Made by a program: the position numbers and the translations under genes
Assembly (NCBI RefSeq): GCF_056712565.1
Contig: NZ_CM160072.1
Strand: one strand, 5' to 3'
Length of the DNA: 64,000 nucleotides
Notes under the pieces: generated by a model
The model's input: only the letters and a program-made list of their open reading frames with translations
Told to the model about the DNA's origin: nothing
Database searches by the model: none
Part shown: positions 40,689 through 58,096 of the stretch, in pieces
How positions within the stretch are numbered: position 1 is the first letter of the stretch
Layout: every line of letters starts with the position of its first letter

Positions 40689-41303
40689 TCACGCCCCACA
40701 ATCACCAATCTGATCCACCACCGTCAGATACCAGTCACTGTCATAACTGTAAAGTTGACTTAAATAAAATACCAGTCCATCGTTACTCTCTTCTGGCGCA
40801 GCGACCACACGCACGGCCCCGTATTCCATTCGACGCGCTGCGGCAATCTGCGCATCAGAAATAGTATTTTGCGGTGAACCAAACATCTGCGTGAAGACCA
40901 AACTACGGCTGACTTTATGGTGAACATCGCTATTGCTAATAAAATACCCCTGCTTATTCCAGCCACGTTCGCAGTTAAATTTCGGGATAGCTTTCTTATT
41001 AAATTCGTCATCTCGCGGAACATGTTCCCCTGCCGAGGGCCATGGGAAATACTCGGGAACAGGTTGCCTGAAATTAATTTGCTTAAGATTTTCAACATCC
41101 ATCGAAGCACCACGGTGGAAAAGAACATACAAACCCGTTTTTTTATCAATTAACGAGTTGATTAATTGGGCATCTTCTTGCTGAAAGCCCATAATCACCT
41201 TTCTGGCTGTTTCCTCCAGCGTACACCCGGCATTGGCGGGTAAAGAAAAGAATATCAGCCCCACCAGCATCATTCCTTTTTTTAACATCAGCATTGTTTG
41301 CAT
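40689..41303 (-). CDS. Accessory island gene A: secreted/periplasmic protein of unknown function (signal peptide, AXA-type cleavage site ANA-G)
   Basis: 204-aa ORF MQTMLMLKKGMMLVGLIFFSLPANAGC; last gene of a four-gene minus-strand operon; no family recognised. Confidence 0.55.
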   Translation of the reverse strand: MQTMLMLKKGMMLVGLIFFSLPANAGCTLEETARKVIMGFQQEDAQLINSLIDKKTGLYVLFHRGASMDVENLKQINFRQPVPEYFPWPSAGEHVPRDDEFNKKAIPKFNCERGWNKQGYFISNSDVHHKVSRSLVFTQMFGSPQNTISDAQIAAARRMEYGAVRVVAAPEESNDGLVFYLSQLYSYDSDWYLTVVDQIGDCGA

Positions 41304-41354
41304 CTTCTCATCATGGGGCTCATATTACACATTTAACAATTTTCAGGATAAACC

Positions 41355-43463
41355 TTACACCATACTGTTAACCTGGCCGGGTAATTCGCTAGCTGGAATA
41401 CGAAAGGTATACCAGGCATAACGACAGCGTTTCCACAGGCTGGAGAAATGGAGATGATAAAGGCAATCTGCAATAATTTCGTTATCTGGATATAAAGACT
41501 CGGCAAAATGTGTCCAGCGCGCACTGAGTTTCATGTTAAACAGTTTTTCATCTTCTTTGTTACCATACAGGCGCGACAAAGTAATCATTGCTTCGAGCGT
41601 ACCTTTATTCGCTTCTTCTTGTACCTGTTGGAGGTGCAAATGAGCAAGTGAGAGTTCTTTCACCTCAAAGATATTAAGTAAAAAAAGCCCCCATGCTTTT
41701 TCATGTCCAGCTTCATGAGCCAGAAATAAATTGTCAAGGAGATTTTTTTCATAAATAGCCCGTGTTTCTTTAGAAATTTCTTGTTTATTTAGTGCCTGGT
41801 AGCAGATAGCAATGCTAAAATAAATATTTTGTAGATCTTGTTGATGTTCGCTATAACCATAATTTTTTACCAGTGGATAAGATACCGAGCTATGGAAATT
41901 TAGGTCATCTTGAAGTATTTTAAGTGCCCGTCGAAAATACTCCAAAGCTGTAGATGGTTCATAAGGTAATTTTGTATTGTCTTCCTTATCCAAATATTCA
42001 AGAGCAACTAAATTTAATGCGGCAGGAATATTTCTTTGCTTACCAATTGTCGCAAGCGGAATGAAATAATCAGAAAGGTCAAACCAACTCAAATCTTTTA
42101 TTGCCGACCGCCAATTATGATTGTATTTAATGTCACTAGCTTTTTCCAGCCAAGCATCGCCCTGCCCTTCATCTTTTTCAAAACCCAAAATACCCTCTCG
42201 CTGGAAAAACCCCCTATAAATAACAGGTGTAGCATAAGTTGTATTCTGTGAATTTTGGCAGATAAAATTATATATCCAGAATGAATCTGGATAATAACTT
42301 AATGCAAATTTTATCGCGTACGCAGTGTAATAATTATTGAGCTTCATGTCTTCCATCACCGCTCGCTGTATACAGCACCACAACTTATCGTGATCGTTCT
42401 GCTTGTTATAGCAGGCAAGTAACCACTCTAGGGCATTATGGCGACATTCCTGAAATTGTGCGTACTGAGCAATATTCTCTGCTAAGTCGATTGCATATTG
42501 TTGCTCCTCGGGCGCAATGTCCTCAATGCTGACATCTCGGTAATCATCCCACCAAAGTAAGAGATCCATATAGTCATGTTCTTCGGTAGATAAGTGCTTA
42601 CAGGTTACTGAATCCAGCAATTCGGAAATTTCTTTATGCGACCCTCCCCAGCGTGGCATTCGAAATGGTATATATTCAACAAAAGGATAAAAAGTGTGAG
42701 GAAAAATAGTCAGGCAAACAGAAAGCCAATATTTTTGCCCACCATCATCATCATACTCAGGAAGTATATTGGGGCGAGGCAAAACGGGGCATATTGCATG
42801 CTCAAACGAAAGTCCGGAATACGCCATCAACGCTTCCACTTCTTGCGGGGAGCGGCGGTGATAATTTTTCAGTGCGATCATTAATGGTATTCCTGCGACA
42901 CTATCACCGTTAAGGTGTGCCGCCAGCCAGGCTGGCTGACCAAATACTTTTGAGTTGGTGCTGGTAAGTAATGCAGCCATCCATTGTCGTGGGTCACAAT
43001 CAATTGCTTTAAGTGTAGCGATGACCATTTGTTCATTACATGCACCAGCACAAAGCCACATTGCATGTGTGGTATCATTTGCCCAGCCATAACTGCGATA
43101 TAACCATGCACGGTGATTCCAGTATTGTGCTTCGGCAAGCCAGGCATGTGTAGAATGAGGTCTTGCTTGCTGCCAGGTTTTAATGAGTCTTAAACCTTCT
43201 GTTCCGGCATCAACTAGCGTGTTCATATCATAAAAATAGTTGCACATTTGGGTCCAGGATAAAAAATAGCGCTTTTCAGCCTGACGAGAAGTGAAACTCT
43301 CCTGTAATACCTGGTTATAAATTTCATCTAGTTCCTGATAACGTTTTTCTTGTAACATATAAGGAATATTTGCGATTTGCCATTTTCTCTCAAGAGTATT
43401 AAGTGGCATTTTTTGGTCACACATCTTTTGCATTGCACTGAGTAAACGAGCATCCTGTTCCAT
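41355..43463 (-). CDS. Accessory island gene B: large (~700 aa) Trp/Tyr-rich cytoplasmic protein of unknown function, possibly helical-repeat
   Basis: ORF 41355..43502; start set at MEQDARLLSAMQKM, which has an AAGGA Shine-Dalgarno and leaves a 10-nt gap after gene C; no family confidently recognised. Confidence 0.55.
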   Translation of the reverse strand: MEQDARLLSAMQKMCDQKMPLNTLERKWQIANIPYMLQEKRYQELDEIYNQVLQESFTSRQAEKRYFLSWTQMCNYFYDMNTLVDAGTEGLRLIKTWQQARPHSTHAWLAEAQYWNHRAWLYRSYGWANDTTHAMWLCAGACNEQMVIATLKAIDCDPRQWMAALLTSTNSKVFGQPAWLAAHLNGDSVAGIPLMIALKNYHRRSPQEVEALMAYSGLSFEHAICPVLPRPNILPEYDDDGGQKYWLSVCLTIFPHTFYPFVEYIPFRMPRWGGSHKEISELLDSVTCKHLSTEEHDYMDLLLWWDDYRDVSIEDIAPEEQQYAIDLAENIAQYAQFQECRHNALEWLLACYNKQNDHDKLWCCIQRAVMEDMKLNNYYTAYAIKFALSYYPDSFWIYNFICQNSQNTTYATPVIYRGFFQREGILGFEKDEGQGDAWLEKASDIKYNHNWRSAIKDLSWFDLSDYFIPLATIGKQRNIPAALNLVALEYLDKEDNTKLPYEPSTALEYFRRALKILQDDLNFHSSVSYPLVKNYGYSEHQQDLQNIYFSIAICYQALNKQEISKETRAIYEKNLLDNLFLAHEAGHEKAWGLFLLNIFEVKELSLAHLHLQQVQEEANKGTLEAMITLSRLYGNKEDEKLFNMKLSARWTHFAESLYPDNEIIADCLYHLHFSSLWKRCRYAWYTFRIPASELPGQVNSMV

Positions 43464-43473
43464 AGATATCCTT

Positions 43474-44190
43474 TTAATTAGGTTCAAAAATTTTAAATTC
43501 ATTCCACGGCAATTTTTTCCAGTTACTGGATGGATCTTTCAACCATGCAGTGACTTCCTTTAAATCACGGTTCGCAGTGGCGACGGGGGTATCGTATATC
43601 ATTAACCATTTTTGTCGGGCGCGAACATAAGCACTGGCATAATCTTCCCATGAAGCGAAACAATCTTGTGCTCTTTGAGCATTCAGTAATAACACTATCC
43701 AGGCCTGGTTTTCATCGCACCAGCCTAAACCGGCGATGCAACGAGTTAAAAAAGCAGTGCGCATACAGTCAAACGCCAGCCCATCCAGAACCTGGCCTTG
43801 TGCTGCCAGTTGTTCGTAAAAATCATGTGGAGAATTACCAAGCCCTGTAGCCCAGCGCTGTAATATAACGCCAATTTGTTGACGGAAATCTTCGTTGCTT
43901 TGGTAAGTTTCTGTTCCTAGCTCTTGTTTAACCTGTAGTGCAAGTTGTTGACGCTTATCATCAGTCAACTTTAAATCTAACGTGAAGCCATTTACTGACA
44001 GTCCATTACGACGAGCAACTATATCACCAATTGCTAATGCCCACTTACGTCTCTTTGTTGCTCGTCTTTTGTCCTTGATTAGATCCTTTTCTTTTTCTTT
44101 AGCAATAAAAGCATCGATTTGTGGTTTGTTTTTTTTGTATCTATAGATAAAAATAAATATTGCGACCAGGAGAACAATGATAAGACTCAT
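43474..44190 (-). CDS. Accessory island gene C: single-pass membrane-anchored protein of unknown function (possibly DUF1266-like, unverified)
   Basis: 238-aa ORF; N-terminal TM helix MSLIIVLLVAIFIFIY then soluble domain; start ATG shares one base with gene D stop (TAATG). Confidence 0.55.
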   Translation of the reverse strand: MSLIIVLLVAIFIFIYRYKKNKPQIDAFIAKEKEKDLIKDKRRATKRRKWALAIGDIVARRNGLSVNGFTLDLKLTDDKRQQLALQVKQELGTETYQSNEDFRQQIGVILQRWATGLGNSPHDFYEQLAAQGQVLDGLAFDCMRTAFLTRCIAGLGWCDENQAWIVLLLNAQRAQDCFASWEDYASAYVRARQKWLMIYDTPVATANRDLKEVTAWLKDPSSNWKKLPWNEFKIFEPN

Positions 44191-45404
44191 TATTTTTCAA
44201 CCTCTGACAGGGGTAAGTAATGAGATGTCTGTAATGTCAAACTCTCTATCTCAAAGGAAATGTTGCTGATATTTTGACCTGCAAATTGCGGATGCCACTC
44301 AGCGCCAGGGAATAACATTTCCGCAGAAGTAGCAACTATAGGGTCAATAGCATTAAGATAATGTAACTTATCAGGTGCGCTGTGTAACAGTAACCACTGC
44401 AACTCCACTGAAGGATTTGTAAAATGTTCTAATAAATGAAAGTTATTATGTAGTACGCTTAGTAAAAAACTGGTTTCGTATACTTCCGTTACATATTTCC
44501 ACCCCTGATATTCAGGTGTATTTTCATAAACAATACCCATACCTTCACAATCACTATGTCGAACTGCTTGTGGTGATAATAGTTGCAAAAGAGACAAAAC
44601 ATCGTCCGCATATTTTTTAACTGGATGACGATTTTGCTTACCTTTTATTTGATCAATTTCAAGTGAATCACCAACAACATTGAGAGCAATAGTAACATGA
44701 GGAATATTATTATTATCACGCAAACTGAATAACCGTAATTTATGTTGCTCAATTTGATTTGCATAATACTCACCATAACCACCGGTAAGATTTTTTCGAT
44801 CATCAAACTGGCCTACGCAATGTTGCATATGCCATGATTCATAAGCCATTTCACGACGAAGGTTCGAATGACTGGCATCAAACTCAACAATTTTTCCGTC
44901 TGGCACATCAAGTATTGACTTTACAGTATTTTGTTCACTCGGCTGCCACCCTTTCTCGCGTCGTTGAAGCATCTTTTCATGCTCTTCTTCACGCATTCTG
45001 AACGCAACGTAGCAGGTTATGCGCTGTAGTTTTGATTCCAGACGGGTACCACATTTCCTGGAAAGAAATTCCACCAACTCCCGTTCTTTGGTTAATATTT
45101 GTTGATGATCGGTTTCGATATAATAAAGTGTCGCAGTTGATACTGAGGCAGTATTAAACTTCGATACCAGCCATTCCGGGATTACATCATCATTTTTATT
45201 AAACAGTGAATATTCTGCAAGCGAGTTAATTTGTTGCACCATTGGAAAGTCACTAATTAGCCATCGATAAAAATGGTTGAGTAACCATTTTTGGATGGTC
45301 TCATTATCCTGGCGAAACAGACTTCTTTGCAAAATTGCTGTTTTTACTTCCGGGGCATTAATTACATCCCTTGCATTATAATTCTGGTGAATATTTCCAG
45401 TCAT
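44190..45404 (-). CDS. Accessory island gene D: 404-aa cytoplasmic protein of unknown function (possible PcfJ-like domain around WHMQHCVGQ; unverified)
   Basis: First gene of the operon; AT-rich codon usage; motif ESWHMQHCVGQFDDRKNLTGGYGEYYANQ. Confidence 0.55.
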   Translation of the reverse strand: MTGNIHQNYNARDVINAPEVKTAILQRSLFRQDNETIQKWLLNHFYRWLISDFPMVQQINSLAEYSLFNKNDDVIPEWLVSKFNTASVSTATLYYIETDHQQILTKERELVEFLSRKCGTRLESKLQRITCYVAFRMREEEHEKMLQRREKGWQPSEQNTVKSILDVPDGKIVEFDASHSNLRREMAYESWHMQHCVGQFDDRKNLTGGYGEYYANQIEQHKLRLFSLRDNNNIPHVTIALNVVGDSLEIDQIKGKQNRHPVKKYADDVLSLLQLLSPQAVRHSDCEGMGIVYENTPEYQGWKYVTEVYETSFLLSVLHNNFHLLEHFTNPSVELQWLLLHSAPDKLHYLNAIDPIVATSAEMLFPGAEWHPQFAGQNISNISFEIESLTLQTSHYLPLSEVEK

Positions 45405-54316: not shown

Positions 54317-54334
54317 CTGACAGTCTGCTTTGAG
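54317..54334 (+). repeat. Copy 1 of ~16-bp motif CTGACAGTCTGSTYTG (ctgacagtctgctttgag)
   Basis: Shares a 13-mer with copy 3 and an 11-mer with copy 2. Confidence 0.7.
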
Positions 54335-54460
54335 CGAAAAGTGGACATTAGAGTTACAAAAGCAAGTTTAAATCATCCAAAATATTACAATGTCCTTATC
54401 TATCTGATATCGTTATGATAAAAAGCTCCTGAATATAATCGATAGTAGGTGGTTATTTCC

Positions 54461-54838
54461 ATGAAATCAATTTTAGAGGTCTTTACTCAAGGAAATACTA
54501 AAGAAAAACTGGCTGTTATCGCCGATCTCACAACCATTGCGGGAATATCGATTGCAACTATTATTGCTGGTTTGTTAACCCTAGTTGCAAAAACAGATAA
54601 ACTAGATGTTGGAAATCTGTTTGGAGTTGTCATAATATCTCTGCTCGGATTGGCTGGTGTTTGCTGTTTTGTGGCCTTATTTATTTGGGTTATAACCCAA
54701 ATGTCTAAACCATGGGGAACACCTCGGGGGGTTCAGCCCTTAGTTAAGTGTGCTATTTCCCTTATCTTTATCTGTATGTTTTTGCTGGCTGTCTTTACAT
54801 TTTATGAGTTTATTTCTTCGATGAGCATACGCTATTGA
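54461..54838 (+). CDS. Small three-TM-helix membrane protein of unknown function (prophage cargo)
   Basis: ORF 54449..54838; ATG at 54461 (MKSILEVFTQGN); three hydrophobic helices; AT-rich; convergent with the recombinase gene. Confidence 0.5.
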   Translation: MKSILEVFTQGNTKEKLAVIADLTTIAGISIATIIAGLLTLVAKTDKLDVGNLFGVVIISLLGLAGVCCFVALFIWVITQMSKPWGTPRGVQPLVKCAISLIFICMFLLAVFTFYEFISSMSIRY

Positions 54839-54860: not shown

Positions 54861-55547
54861 TTAAAAGAGACCTTCTATATCGACTTCAATGCCCAAATAA
54901 CGGACTGTGCTTTCCAGTTTCTTATGGCCCAACAGAAGTTGGATCACCCGGAGACTCTTGGTTTTCTTGTAGATTAAGTAAGGTTTTGTTCTTCTCATGG
55001 AATGTGTGCTGTACAGCGAATCTTCGAGACCAAGCTTTTCTACCCACCCATGAAAAATTCGGTTGTATTGCCGGGTTGATATATGGTGGTTAGTTCCGAC
55101 CCGAGAGCGGAACAGGAAGCCTTTACTATGCCAGTTGCCGAGCTTTATCAATGCAGTAACCGCTTCCCTTGTCCCTTTGGTTATCTCAAATTGGACAGGG
55201 CTGCCGGTTTTCTGTTGCAACACCGTTGCTCTGCTTGAGACAGAACTGCCATATGCAGCATCTGATACTTTGAGTTTGACCAAATCACAGCCCCGTAGCT
55301 TAGTGTCCAAAGCCATGTTGAACAGAGCTAGATCGCGTGTTTTACCTTCCAACTCAAGTCTAATCCGGATCCCCCAGATATGAAATATCTGAAGTGGCCT
55401 TTTTTGACCGATGGTACGGTCTTTATTCCACGGTGACGTTTTCATATTCAAATCTCCTGCAATGTGGGAGATTTGAGTATGGTTGTCTCTCAAGAGCGAA
55501 AATAAGTCAACTATCACTAGTTGTTGCGCATGTACGTATTCTGTCAA
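54861..55547 (-). CDS. Short tyrosine-type site-specific recombinase (catalytic domain with only ~50-aa N-terminal extension)
   Basis: 228-aa ORF with the tyrosine-recombinase motif series: R in DTKLRGCDL, HSMRRT (H-x-x-R), LLGH, Y in TVRYLG; starts 4 nt after the stop of the upstream 280-aa gene. Confidence 0.6.
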   Translation of the reverse strand: MTEYVHAQQLVIVDLFSLLRDNHTQISHIAGDLNMKTSPWNKDRTIGQKRPLQIFHIWGIRIRLELEGKTRDLALFNMALDTKLRGCDLVKLKVSDAAYGSSVSSRATVLQQKTGSPVQFEITKGTREAVTALIKLGNWHSKGFLFRSRVGTNHHISTRQYNRIFHGWVEKLGLEDSLYSTHSMRRTKPYLIYKKTKSLRVIQLLLGHKKLESTVRYLGIEVDIEGLF

Positions 55548-56291
55548 TTAATTATTGACAATCATCAATTCTGGAATGATCAAAATCATCATATCGAATT
55601 ATAGTCTGGTTGACTGTATCTATTGTTGGTGTCATTTCTGTTATAATATCCTGATAACCTAAAGAGTTAAATACATTTACTAAGGCCTCACACCGAAGGG
55701 CCGTAGCAATTACAAAATTATAAATTGCCAGCCGTTTATTTTCTTGTTTAACTGCAAGAATGAATTCGATAGCAGTATTTTCATCACTTTGGATTGCATT
55801 ATATAGAGATACTATATTTACCATATCATCAGAGAATGTATGTATTGAATCACAAAGGGGAACGTAATGGGCATGATAGTGTGTTTCCCAGCCAATTAAT
55901 TCAAAAAGTCTTCTGGTTCCTGGATATTCAGGTGTATTTGGCCACAATCTATTAAATAGATCAGTTAGTTCTTTTCCCATGCGAATCCTTTCATTTGCTG
56001 CTGGATTAGTCATTCCTTTGGATTTTAAACACTCCAGCCACCGTTTTCCATTACTATGAACTAATTTCTTACTAGCCTTGAGTAATGCTTGTGCATTTTC
56101 GCCATCATCTATTGCTATATAAAATTGATTGGCAGCCTGTTCTATTATAACCCTAGCTAATACTTCCGATGCTGAAAAGGCTCCTATATTCAAAGAAGAG
56201 ATAGCCTGATTACTAAGTTCATTCAGTACATTAAAGTACTGTAAGACCATCAATTTTTGTTCCACACCCTTTAGGTTGTCTGGATTTGCCC

Positions 56292-57197
56292 CTATATTTC
56301 CAGACACCTGTTATCACTTAACCCATTACTGGCTTGCTGCCGTAGATATTCCCGTGGCGAGCGATAACCCAGTGCACTATGCGGATGCCATTCGTTATAA
56401 TGCTCGAACGCCTCTGCAAGGTTCTTTGCTGCCGTTAACCCGTCTGGTTTGGGCATGACACTGATGTAGTCACGCTTTATCGTTTTCACGAAGCTCTCTG
56501 CTATGCCGTTACTCTCCGGACTCCGCACCGCCGTGCTCTTCGGTTCAAGCCCCAACATCCGGGCAAACTGCCGTGTTTCATTAGCCCGGTAGCATGAACC
56601 ATTATCCGTCAGCCACTCTACTGGAGACGCCGGAAGCTCGTTGCCGAAGCGGCGTTCCACCGCTCCCAGCATGACGTCCTGTACTGTTTCACTGTTGAAG
56701 CCGCCCGTAGTGACCGCCCAGTGCAGTGCCTCACGGTCACAGCAGTCCAGCGCGAACGTGACTCGCAGTTTTTCTCCGTTATCACAGCGGAACTCGAACC
56801 CGTCAGAGCACCATCGCTGATTACTTTCTTTCACAGCCACTCTGCCTGTATGTGCCCGTTTCGATGGCGGTACAGCAGGTTTTCGCTCAAGCAACAGCGC
56901 ATTCTGGCGCATGATCCGGTAAACACGTTTGGCATTGATCGCAGGCATACCATCAAGTTCTGCCTGTCTGCGAAGCAGCGCCCATACCCGACGATAACCA
57001 TACGTGGGCAGCTCTCCGATAACATGGTGTATACGGAGAAGCACATCCGTATCATCAGTGTGACGACTGCGGCGGCCATCCATCCAGTCATCGGTTCGTC
57101 TGAGAATGACGTGCAACTGCGCACGCGACACCCGGAGACAACGGCTGACTAAGCTTACTCCCCATCCCCGGGCAATAAGGGCGCGTGCGCTATCCAC
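56292..57197 (-). CDS. insD: IS2 transposase OrfB (InsD, DDE catalytic domain)
   Basis: 301-aa [41 protein letters not shown]. Confidence 0.9.
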
Positions 57198-57520
57198 TTT
57201 TTTGCCCGTCCATATTCAACGGCTTCTTTGAGGAGTTCATTTTCCATCGTTTTCTTGCCGAGCAGGCGCTGGAGTTCTTTAATCTGCTTCATGGCGGCAG
57301 CAAGTTCAGAGGCAGGAACAACCTGTTCTCCGGCGGCGACAGCAGTAAGACTTCCTTCCTGGTATTGCTTACGCCAGAGAAATAACTGGCTGGCTGCTAC
57401 ACCATGTTGCCGGGCAACGAGGGAGACCGTCATCCCTGGTTCAAAGCTCTGCTGAACAATTGCGATCTTTTCCTGTGTGGTACGCCGTCTGCGTTTCTCC
57501 GGTCCTAAGACATCAATCAT
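57155..57520 (-). CDS. insC: IS2 OrfA (InsC, HTH); fused to OrfB by -1 frameshift in the 57155..57197 overlap
   Basis: ORF 57155..57565; start set at [26 protein letters not shown]. Confidence 0.85.
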
Positions 57521-57768
57521 CTGCTCTCCAATGACTAGTCTAAAAACTAGTATTAAGACTATCACTTAAATAAGTGATATTGGTTGTCTGGAGATTCAGG
57601 GGGCCAGTCTATTGTCTATTTTATTTTTATGCTCCTCAAATTTTGCATGGATATATTTATTTATCGCGGCTATTTTTTTTACATCTTCGTCAAGATCAAA
57701 CGGGCAACGTCCAAACAATTCTTTTTTCATATATTTCTCCTGTTGTACAAGCTTCCATAAGTTGGCAG

Positions 57769-57774: not shown

Positions 57775-57962
57775 CACTGAAGATTACCTATAAATAGCTG
57801 TGCGGGATAGCAGATCAGTGCAAGAAGTACAACCAAGTGAACTGTGCGTATTCAGATACCTGGCCTAACGTTCGCGATAGCCGTCCCCTGCACGAAGCCA
57901 TATATTAGATGTATTAGCTCAGACCTTATCTGACAGGTTGAGTAGGTAGAATCTAATCAAAG

Positions 57963-57980
57963 CTGACAGTCTGGTTTGGA
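57963..57980 (+). repeat. Copy 2 of the motif (ctgacagtctggtttgga), same orientation as copy 1
   Basis: Direct repeat of copy 1; together they bracket the whole cargo module. Confidence 0.7.
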
Positions 57981-58080
57981 CTGTGAGTTCAACCGATGGA
58001 TGCAACACACAGCGATCTACGGACATTACTAGCATAGCTGTGTATTAATCATCGGGAAGCAGGTCAGTCCGCTCCTAGCA

Positions 58081-58096
58081 CAGAGCAGACTGTCAG
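58081..58096 (-). repeat. Copy 3 of the motif, inverted (minus strand reads ctgacagtctgctctg)
   Basis: Inverted relative to copies 1 and 2; 102 bp from copy 2; sits in the loop of a 10-bp perfect stem (58076..58085 with 58108..58117). Confidence 0.7.

Follow-up and report, generated by a model that had tools for sequence, protein, structure and literature searches.

The insertion sequence IS2 is delimited by imperfect terminal inverted repeats of 41/42 bp and transposes by a copy-out-paste-in route via a minicircle (PMC3299598). Its right end provides only a -35 element, and the strong promoter at the minicircle junction needs a -10 element, which is joined via a one-bp spacer at a distance of exactly 17 bp (PMC3299598). 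An annotated copy, IS2A of E. coli K-12 MG1655 (NC_000913 381260-382590), resides inside yaiX, has a length of 1331 bp and is itself located between two copies of a 5-bp duplication, ATTAC. Accessory genes of P2-like prophages are found, among other variable positions, at the Z/fun slot between G (tail-fibre assembly) and FI (tail sheath). This slot is occupied by fun(Z) in P2, by a SMEK-domain gene in phage 12474III and by orf44 in Wphi. According to a 2026 preprint on the P2/P4 hotspots, transposable elements occur infrequently in prophages, only about 2% of P2-like prophage pseudogenes are similar to defence genes, and swapping of cargo is favoured over decay in place (10.64898/2026.02.27.708500). 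Disruption by an IS element would therefore represent the less common route for a cargo gene.

Here we describe such a case in a 64-kb window, i.e. the whole stretch of DNA that was analysed. The data are best explained by a recent, strain-specific IS2 insertion, which represents a simple knock-out of a DUF5677 accessory gene in a P2-like prophage (estimated probability about 97%). It is a textbook IS2 knock-out of an uncharacterised prophage cargo gene and as such an ordinary event.

Position of the cargo within the P2-like prophage

According to the annotated relatives DSM 30083 and SF-468, the P2-like prophage adjoins yegQ and ogrK, and its genes follow the order D, U, T, E, FII, FI, three cargo genes, G, H, I, J, W, V. 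The cargo consists of the interrupted DUF5677 gene and two further genes:

54449..54838, + strand: small predicted membrane protein (125-129 aa, phrog_4155), third cargo gene
54861..55445, - strand: tyrosine recombinase of 194 aa comprising the catalytic domain only (Pfam PF00589, E 1.5e-17; WP_001447266.1)

P2 and other sequenced P2-like phages have only the G and FI flanks in common. Homology to P2 and phage 12474III ends at L001 8046-8052 and 10432-10433, with different cargo in between. The G+C content of the cargo (35-43%) is below that of the tail genes (52-59%) and of IS2 (about 55%). The locus shares with the Z/fun slot of P2 the position between G and FI, the conserved flanks and an unrelated AT-rich cargo, but harbors a DUF5677 gene, a small tyrosine recombinase and a membrane protein in place of fun(Z). 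This cargo was present in none of 50,697 phage records. The FI gene is served by an activator site and a pF promoter of its own, which lie in the conserved flank outside the cargo; the late genes of the phage should therefore be unaffected by IS2.

An IS2 copy splits the 280-aa reading frame

The interrupted gene, the element and its target-site duplication are arranged as follows:

55552..56280, - strand: 3' fragment of the DUF5677 gene, codons 39-280 plus stop (rejoined product WP_000711883.1)
56276..56280, no strand assigned: first copy of the target-site duplication, TTGTC on the + strand (GACAA in the sense of the gene), read directly
56281..57611, - strand: complete IS2 (IS3 family), 1331 bp, matching K-12 IS2A without gaps
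56292..57197, - strand: IS2 orfB (catalytic part of the transposase, frame of 301 aa), corresponding to insD1 of K-12 IS2A
57155..57520, - strand: IS2 orfA (InsA-like, 121 aa, ATG at 57520; by translation), corresponding to insC1 of K-12 IS2A
57612..57616, no strand assigned: second copy of the target-site duplication, TTGTC, read directly
57617..57730, - strand: 5' fragment of the DUF5677 gene, codons 1-38, preceded by the ribosome-binding site AGGAGAAATATATG

A preceding inspection of the letters, the sequence-only reading, had claimed an exactly 1331-bp IS2 copy flanked by a clean 5-bp TTGTC duplication. Both copies of the pentamer were indeed read at 56276-56280 and 57612-57616, and they enclose exactly 1331 bp; all coordinates of the earlier claim thus proved right. 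The enclosed segment starts with TGGATTTGCCCCTATATTTCCAGAC and finishes, on the other strand, with TAGACTGGCCCCCTGAATCTCCAGAC. Its termini are the IS2 terminal repeats, TGGATTTGCCCC... and TAGACTGGCCCCC..., at opposite ends. Alignment with K-12 IS2A substantiated the assignment, yielding no gaps, 30 mismatches and 97.75% identity, with the first and the last ~40 bp being identical. Following ISfinder practice, an element is usually counted as an isoform when its nucleotide identity to the reference IS2 exceeds about 95%. With the left end (IRL) at 57611 and the right end (IRR) at 56281, the transposase genes are co-oriented with the interrupted gene. The frames of orfA and orfB are both open, and the AAAAAAG (A6G) frameshift site is intact (about 57197-57203; element position 409). 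In sum, length and termini, orfA and orfB with the A6G -1 frameshift motif, the 5-bp duplication and the degree of identity all agree with IS2. The window copy has these features in common with K-12 IS2A, but differs in its 30 substitutions and in its insertion site, at which IS2 was seen in none of 5,426 complete genomes. No second IS2 end motif occurs in the 64-kb window.

Copies that are 100% identical over the full 1331 bp, annotated as 'IS3 family transposase', were detected by megablast in many E. coli among the 5,426 complete genomes, in which IS2 occupies a median of 4 places per genome. The variant is common in E. coli strains such as SF-468, HS13-1, MS8345 and poultry isolates. [quoted passage not shown]

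When IS2 and one TTGTC copy are removed, 57730..57617 (38 codons) is fused in frame to 56280..55552 (242 codons plus stop). The reconstructed ORF comprises 280 aa and is preceded by a good ribosome-binding site. Its product is identical to the DUF5677 protein WP_000711883.1, in agreement with the claim that IS2 splits a gene of this length. Many complete genomes, among them the type strain DSM 30083, SF-468 and several APEC O1/O2:K1:H7 strains, contain uninterrupted loci that match the reconstructed 1365 bp with 100% identity, and therefore chance is no explanation for the restored frame. A search for uninterrupted alleles, which had been proposed as a check, detected matches over at least 80% of the reconstructed length in 56 of the 5,426 complete E. 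coli genomes and the IS2-bearing form in none. The outcome that had been named as a refutation, the IS2-containing arrangement as the only form, was thus not observed. The uninterrupted loci are annotated as a 'DUF5677 domain-containing protein' adjoining a 'tyrosine-type recombinase/integrase'. A query spanning the junction of IS2 and the gene retrieved no match from the same 5,426 genomes, and IS2 was missing in all 34 complete genomes that cover the whole P2-type region of 3.6 kb. Moreover, positions 40000-64000 of the window, after subtraction of IS2 and one repeat, yield 22,665 bp with 0 mismatches to E. coli SF-468. Taken together, the empty-site alleles, the flank free of mismatches and the absence of the junction from the complete genomes indicate that the insertion is real, recent and strain-specific; its recent date had been suggested before from the intact duplication.

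The program-made list of open reading frames contains an ORF of 251 aa at this position. It starts with a GTG at 56307 inside the right end of IS2, encodes MSGNIGANP and then rejoins the gene. The earlier view that this ORF is an artefact starting within IS2 was thus correct. In exact-protein look-ups, no record was found for the 251-aa artefact, for the 44-aa N-terminal peptide encoded by the 5' fragment or for a 237-aa version with a GTG start. The look-up of a 232-aa version retrieved only intact loci, for which the gene caller had picked a later start.

Consequences of the insertion for the cargo genes

In the most plausible scenario, IS2 transposed into codons 39-40 of the 280-aa DUF5677 gene, whereby the 5-bp target GACAA was duplicated; an identical copy from another place in this E. 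coli lineage is a plausible source. Promoter, ribosome-binding site and the first 38 codons now lie 1.3 kb apart from the other 242 codons, which hold every invariant residue of the protein. The 5' piece runs into the left end of IS2, where a stop codon ends at 57596, and is capable of producing the 44-aa peptide only. The 3' piece is left with the GTG inside the IS2 end, lacking a ribosome-binding site, as its sole start signal. This arrangement predicts loss of DUF5677 function. Some N-terminally truncated protein could in principle be made from the in-frame GTG at 56307 or by read-through of the co-oriented IS2 genes.

The reconstructed protein matches the Pfam family DUF5677 (PF18928) with 39.5 bits (gathering cut-off 27.1 bits, E 8e-10), and the same match was obtained for 47 of 47 aligned homologues. 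It also matches PHROG 4167, a family of unknown function. No match was obtained in NCBIfam, and a sequence search of the PDB retrieved no relative. The family is narrow, as a word-indexed search yielded 10 matches and an exhaustive search 51 representatives at E <= 1e-3. Alignment of 47 members identified R81, E85, Y173 and H185 as invariant and N89, S183, D190 and N193 as near-invariant; all of these residues are encoded in the 3' fragment. In NCTC9112, a pair of DUF5677 and recombinase genes with 89% identity is found directly behind the replication genes in an accessory position of a lambdoid prophage, and E2348/69 likewise contains the pair. We regard the DUF5677 protein as a prophage accessory protein that possibly has a role in conflicts between phages or mobile elements.

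The insertion may, beyond the knock-out, alter expression of the downstream genes, either because an outward or hybrid promoter drives the 3' fragment and the recombinase gene, or because polarity silences the latter. This appears unlikely, although several features are compatible with it. IS2 is co-oriented with both the 3' fragment and the recombinase gene, and a terminator-like site was not found on that strand within the element; hence, read-through from an IS2 promoter is possible. The recombinase gene starts with an ATG at 55445, only 106 bp downstream of the DUF5677 stop codon and on the same strand, which makes co-transcription of the two genes in the intact allele plausible. However, the flank GACAACCT next to the right end of IS2 provides no -10 element, and a promoter scan detected no site at the right-end junction. 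Consequently, the promoter-out effect that had been considered earlier finds no basis in a hybrid promoter at this end. At other loci, unrelated or divergently oriented genes precede the recombinase unit, and a dependence of the recombinase on the promoter of the upstream DUF5677 cargo gene is therefore unlikely. In addition, its ribosome-binding site and ATG are buried in a conserved palindrome:

55442..55482, no strand assigned: near-perfect palindrome (15-9-15) containing the ribosome-binding site and ATG of the recombinase gene

The effects of IS2 on the downstream recombinase would be at most polar; polarity or read-through may affect this gene.

Somewhat less probable still is the idea that the knock-out was selected, because a costly DUF5677 protein, e.g. 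a toxin, an abortive-infection effector or an autoimmune defence, would favour cells or prophages that have lost it. The Z/fun slot of P2-like phages is known for defence and lysogenic-conversion genes, and its occupant in P2, fun(Z), blocks T5. Further, homologues with ~41% identity occupy accessory positions in lambdoid prophages by themselves, directly behind the replication genes and beside defence-like genes. The gene has also been inactivated independently, in two assemblies by an A8-to-A7 frameshift at codon 19-20 and in Shigella flexneri K-272 by a frameshift at the start codon. However, for a gene with hundreds of copies, one IS insertion and two or three frameshifts are in accordance with neutral decay. 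The 90%-identity protein cluster comprises 328 members, the gene was annotated as intact in the complete-genome loci that were inspected, and intact copies are far commoner than disrupted ones, so that tolerated loss fits better than selected loss. The earlier suggestion of a toxin or abortive-infection effector gained no ground either. The defence models of PADLOC-DB v2 matched neither the DUF5677 protein nor the recombinase or the membrane protein, structure comparison yielded no informative match and no toxin-like fold, and no antitoxin-like partner was recognised among the two cargo neighbours. The only experimental result that was found concerns a DUF5677 ORF from Bacillota, selected on the grounds that the domain is enriched beside serine recombinases. 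This ORF is missing from the five for which protection of E. faecalis against six phages was reported (10.1101/2025.10.07.681051).

Finally, IS2 is present in multiple copies in E. coli and repeats are a classic source of mis-joins, but placement of an IS2 repeat at this position by the assembler is highly improbable, as the exact 5-bp duplication, the exact IS2 ends and the perfect in-frame restoration of a known gene are a signature of transposition and unlike a mis-join.

The recombinase unit and the lox-like border sites

The existence of a recombinase gene downstream of the insertion had been recognised correctly. It encodes a protein of 194 aa starting at its own ATG at 55445, as annotated in the relatives, and does not correspond to the ORF of 228 aa with a TTG start. 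Residues R51, K79, H148, R151, H174 and Y183 are invariant in the recombinase family, and the R-K-H-R-H-Y set is thus complete. These residues align to the catalytic residues of XerD in the motifs LRVSE, GNKER, HVLRH, LLGH and QIY. An N-terminal core-binding (SAM-like) domain is absent; only ~35 residues precede the catalytic domain, and the match begins at residue 131 of XerD. Hence, the protein resembles FimB/FimE in its size of about 200 aa and in the lack of a separate core-binding domain, and XerD in its full catalytic set. In contrast to FimB/FimE and XerC/XerD, it scores far under every NCBIfam cut-off (invertase, E 5e-5; XerC, E 3e-11, 43 vs 335 bits), and there is no inversion polymorphism among the 34 genomes that fully cover the region.

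The recombinase family retains 72-92% identity across Escherichia, Proteus, Providencia, Pantoea, Idiomarina and Cycloclasticus. Its gene is part of a unit of ~700 bp, which encodes a recombinase of 200 aa and is present next to varied cargo in many islands and prophages. The unit is 88-94% identical between E. coli loci with otherwise unrelated neighbours, among them a restriction endonuclease, an anti-phage dGTPase, a GIY-YIG protein, a CBS protein and ETEC_3214; elsewhere the unit is found next to arsenic and copper resistance modules. The unit starts sharply at CAACC followed by the 15-9-15 palindrome. This palindrome is conserved at all loci of the family; in Providencia, both of its arms carry changes. 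Its 3' end is likewise sharp and consists of a hairpin followed by TGCCAGGAGCGGAC. The copy in the window has lost this 3' end together with the conserved C-terminal tail of the protein.

Three repeats are associated with the cargo:

54323..54346, + strand: site A, lox-like inverted repeat GTCTGCTT-TGAGCGAA-AAGTGGAC, at the FI-side border of the cargo
57960..57987, + strand: site B, related shortened repeat inside the cargo, upstream of the DUF5677 gene
58067..58090, - strand: site C, lox-like inverted repeat GTCTGCTC-TGTGCTAG-GAGCGGAC (given for the - strand), at the G-side border of the cargo

The lox-like inverted repeat reads GTCCGCTC-N8-GAGCGGAC with an 8-8-8 layout, which is extended to 12-8-12 in ATCC 25922. 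Hairpin sites of the form GTCYRC-N10-14-GYRGAC occur exactly twice in the 64-kb window, at 54323-54346 and 58067-58090, that is at both cargo borders, as compared to 0.3 sites on average in shuffled sequence. In P2-like prophages with different cargo, homology stops at these sites or a few bases from them, on both sides. The same site is found between single cargo genes of a lambdoid prophage in E. coli 042 and of a genomic island in ATCC 25922. In CP4-44-like islands of E. coli 536 and other strains, it is located where the variable region borders on the YeeP-like GTPase/Ag43 backbone. Its right half forms the sharp 3' end of the ~700-bp recombinase unit, and site B moves with the DUF5677-recombinase module into lambdoid prophages.

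A simpler motif, CTGACAGTCTG, was also considered as a recombinase-linked site and was discarded, as it is absent as a 16-mer beside the related recombinases in 042 and ATCC 25922. An Rfam scan of the cargo and its borders detected no RNA family.

These observations tentatively suggest that the cargo hit by IS2 could belong to an undescribed site-specific cassette system, a reading to which we assign a low probability. By analogy, the arrangement would resemble the pdif modules of Acinetobacter plasmids and integron cassettes, in which single genes or small modules are bounded by short inverted-repeat sites and the modules recur in unrelated mobile elements. However, the 8-8-8 (up to 12-8-12) layout of the sites differs from the 11-6-11 of dif-like sites and from attC, the associated recombinase belongs neither to XerC/D nor to IntI, and recombination at the sites is putative. 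Although the border sites are inverted relative to each other, no inversion of the cargo was observed, its orientation being the same in all 34 fully covering genomes. In the literature covered by a search, no description of such a cassette system was found, which is no proof of novelty.

By itself, the insertion is of minor significance, as it adds one more allele to the known IS2 insertions. It does correct the annotation, in that the locus contains one 280-aa pseudogene split by IS2 and not a 251-aa gene, and it provides a strain marker in a lineage that is otherwise base-for-base like ST95-type strains in this region. On a small scale, it also runs counter to the reported pattern of P2 hotspot cargo being swapped rather than inactivated in place, and as a natural knock-out of the DUF5677 gene it is usable for studying the function of this family. 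The more interesting leads are the lox-like border sites and the highly conserved mini-recombinase unit. If the recombinase acts on these sites, this would constitute a mechanism by which accessory and defence genes are swapped between unrelated mobile elements that have no homology in common.

Lox-like sites at the borders of the cargo

The variable slot between genes G and FI of the P2-like prophage (P2 Z/fun) carries a DUF5677 gene, a tyrosine recombinase gene and a small membrane protein gene, and both borders of this cargo coincide exactly with lox-like inverted-repeat sites of the type GTCCGCTC-N8-GAGCGGAC, which extend up to 12-8-12. The sites and the third cargo gene are located as follows.

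54323-54346 (+): lox-like inverted-repeat site, one border of the cargo
58067-58090 (-): lox-like inverted-repeat site, other border of the cargo
57960-57987 (+): third, shortened border-repeat copy with the sequence ACAGTC-TGGTTTG-GACTGT, upstream of the DUF5677 gene
54449-54838 (opposite strand): third cargo gene, small predicted membrane protein of the function-unknown family phrog_4155
Comparison loci from other genomes: further lox-like sites in L002 (8548, 9764), L003 (3841, 4897, 8109), L013 (6434) and L015 (6012)

These two lox-like sites at the cargo borders are the only ones in the 64-kb window, at a chance expectation of 0.3. In a prophage of E. coli 042 and in an island of ATCC 25922, this site also lies between individual cargo genes; in CP4-44-like islands it is found where the variable region ends. 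The shortened repeat accompanies the DUF5677-recombinase pair when this enters lambdoid prophages, for example that of E. coli NCTC9112 (locus L011). Neither the module as it occurs in lambdoid prophages nor the IHE3034 variant contains the phrog_4155 gene.

Just beyond the prophage end, three genes encoding a hypothetical/DUF4034 protein, a DUF1266 protein and a PcfJ-domain protein lie between yegP and yegQ (40689-45404). This block looks like a separate small island.

The recombinase unit and its P2-borne copy

The recombinase gene resides in a unit of ~700 bp, which has sharp ends and unrelated neighbours.

54861-55482: recombinase unit; also around the recombinase gene in L002, L003, L012-L014 and L023-L032
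55442-55482: near-perfect 15-9-15 palindrome, including the recombinase RBS and start codon

The unit, for which the sources give no specific name, encodes a tyrosine recombinase of 200 aa comprising the catalytic domain only, and the protein shows 72-92% identity over a range that extends from E. coli as far as Idiomarina and Cycloclasticus. In E. coli the unit lies beside defence-like genes, and in marine bacteria beside metal-resistance modules. The palindrome is kept in all loci, with joint changes on both arms in Providencia, and could represent a translational hairpin, an operator or a recombination site.

In the P2-borne copy, the C-terminal tail DALEISESIEV, which is invariant in the recombinase family, is replaced by IEGLF (54861-54880), and the hairpin and half-site that close the unit elsewhere are missing. 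By these sequence features, the gene has been recombined at its 3' end. The catalytic Tyr is kept.

Variation in the DUF5677 gene and the module

Within the DUF5677 gene, a homopolymer tract lies at codons 17-20.

57673-57680: T8 on the + strand, reading A8 in the gene

Compared with the window, the tract has contracted to A7 in two further assemblies (L033, L034), frameshifting the gene, and in Shigella flexneri K-272 the gene is frameshifted at the start codon. These frameshifts could reflect slipped-strand on/off variation or simple decay.

In NCTC9112 (L011, 1309-3908), the DUF5677-recombinase pair, 89% identical, directly follows replication gene P of a lambdoid prophage. Its recombinase gene carries a frameshift and lies directly against an IS3 element, a further instance of IS activity at the DUF5677-recombinase module.
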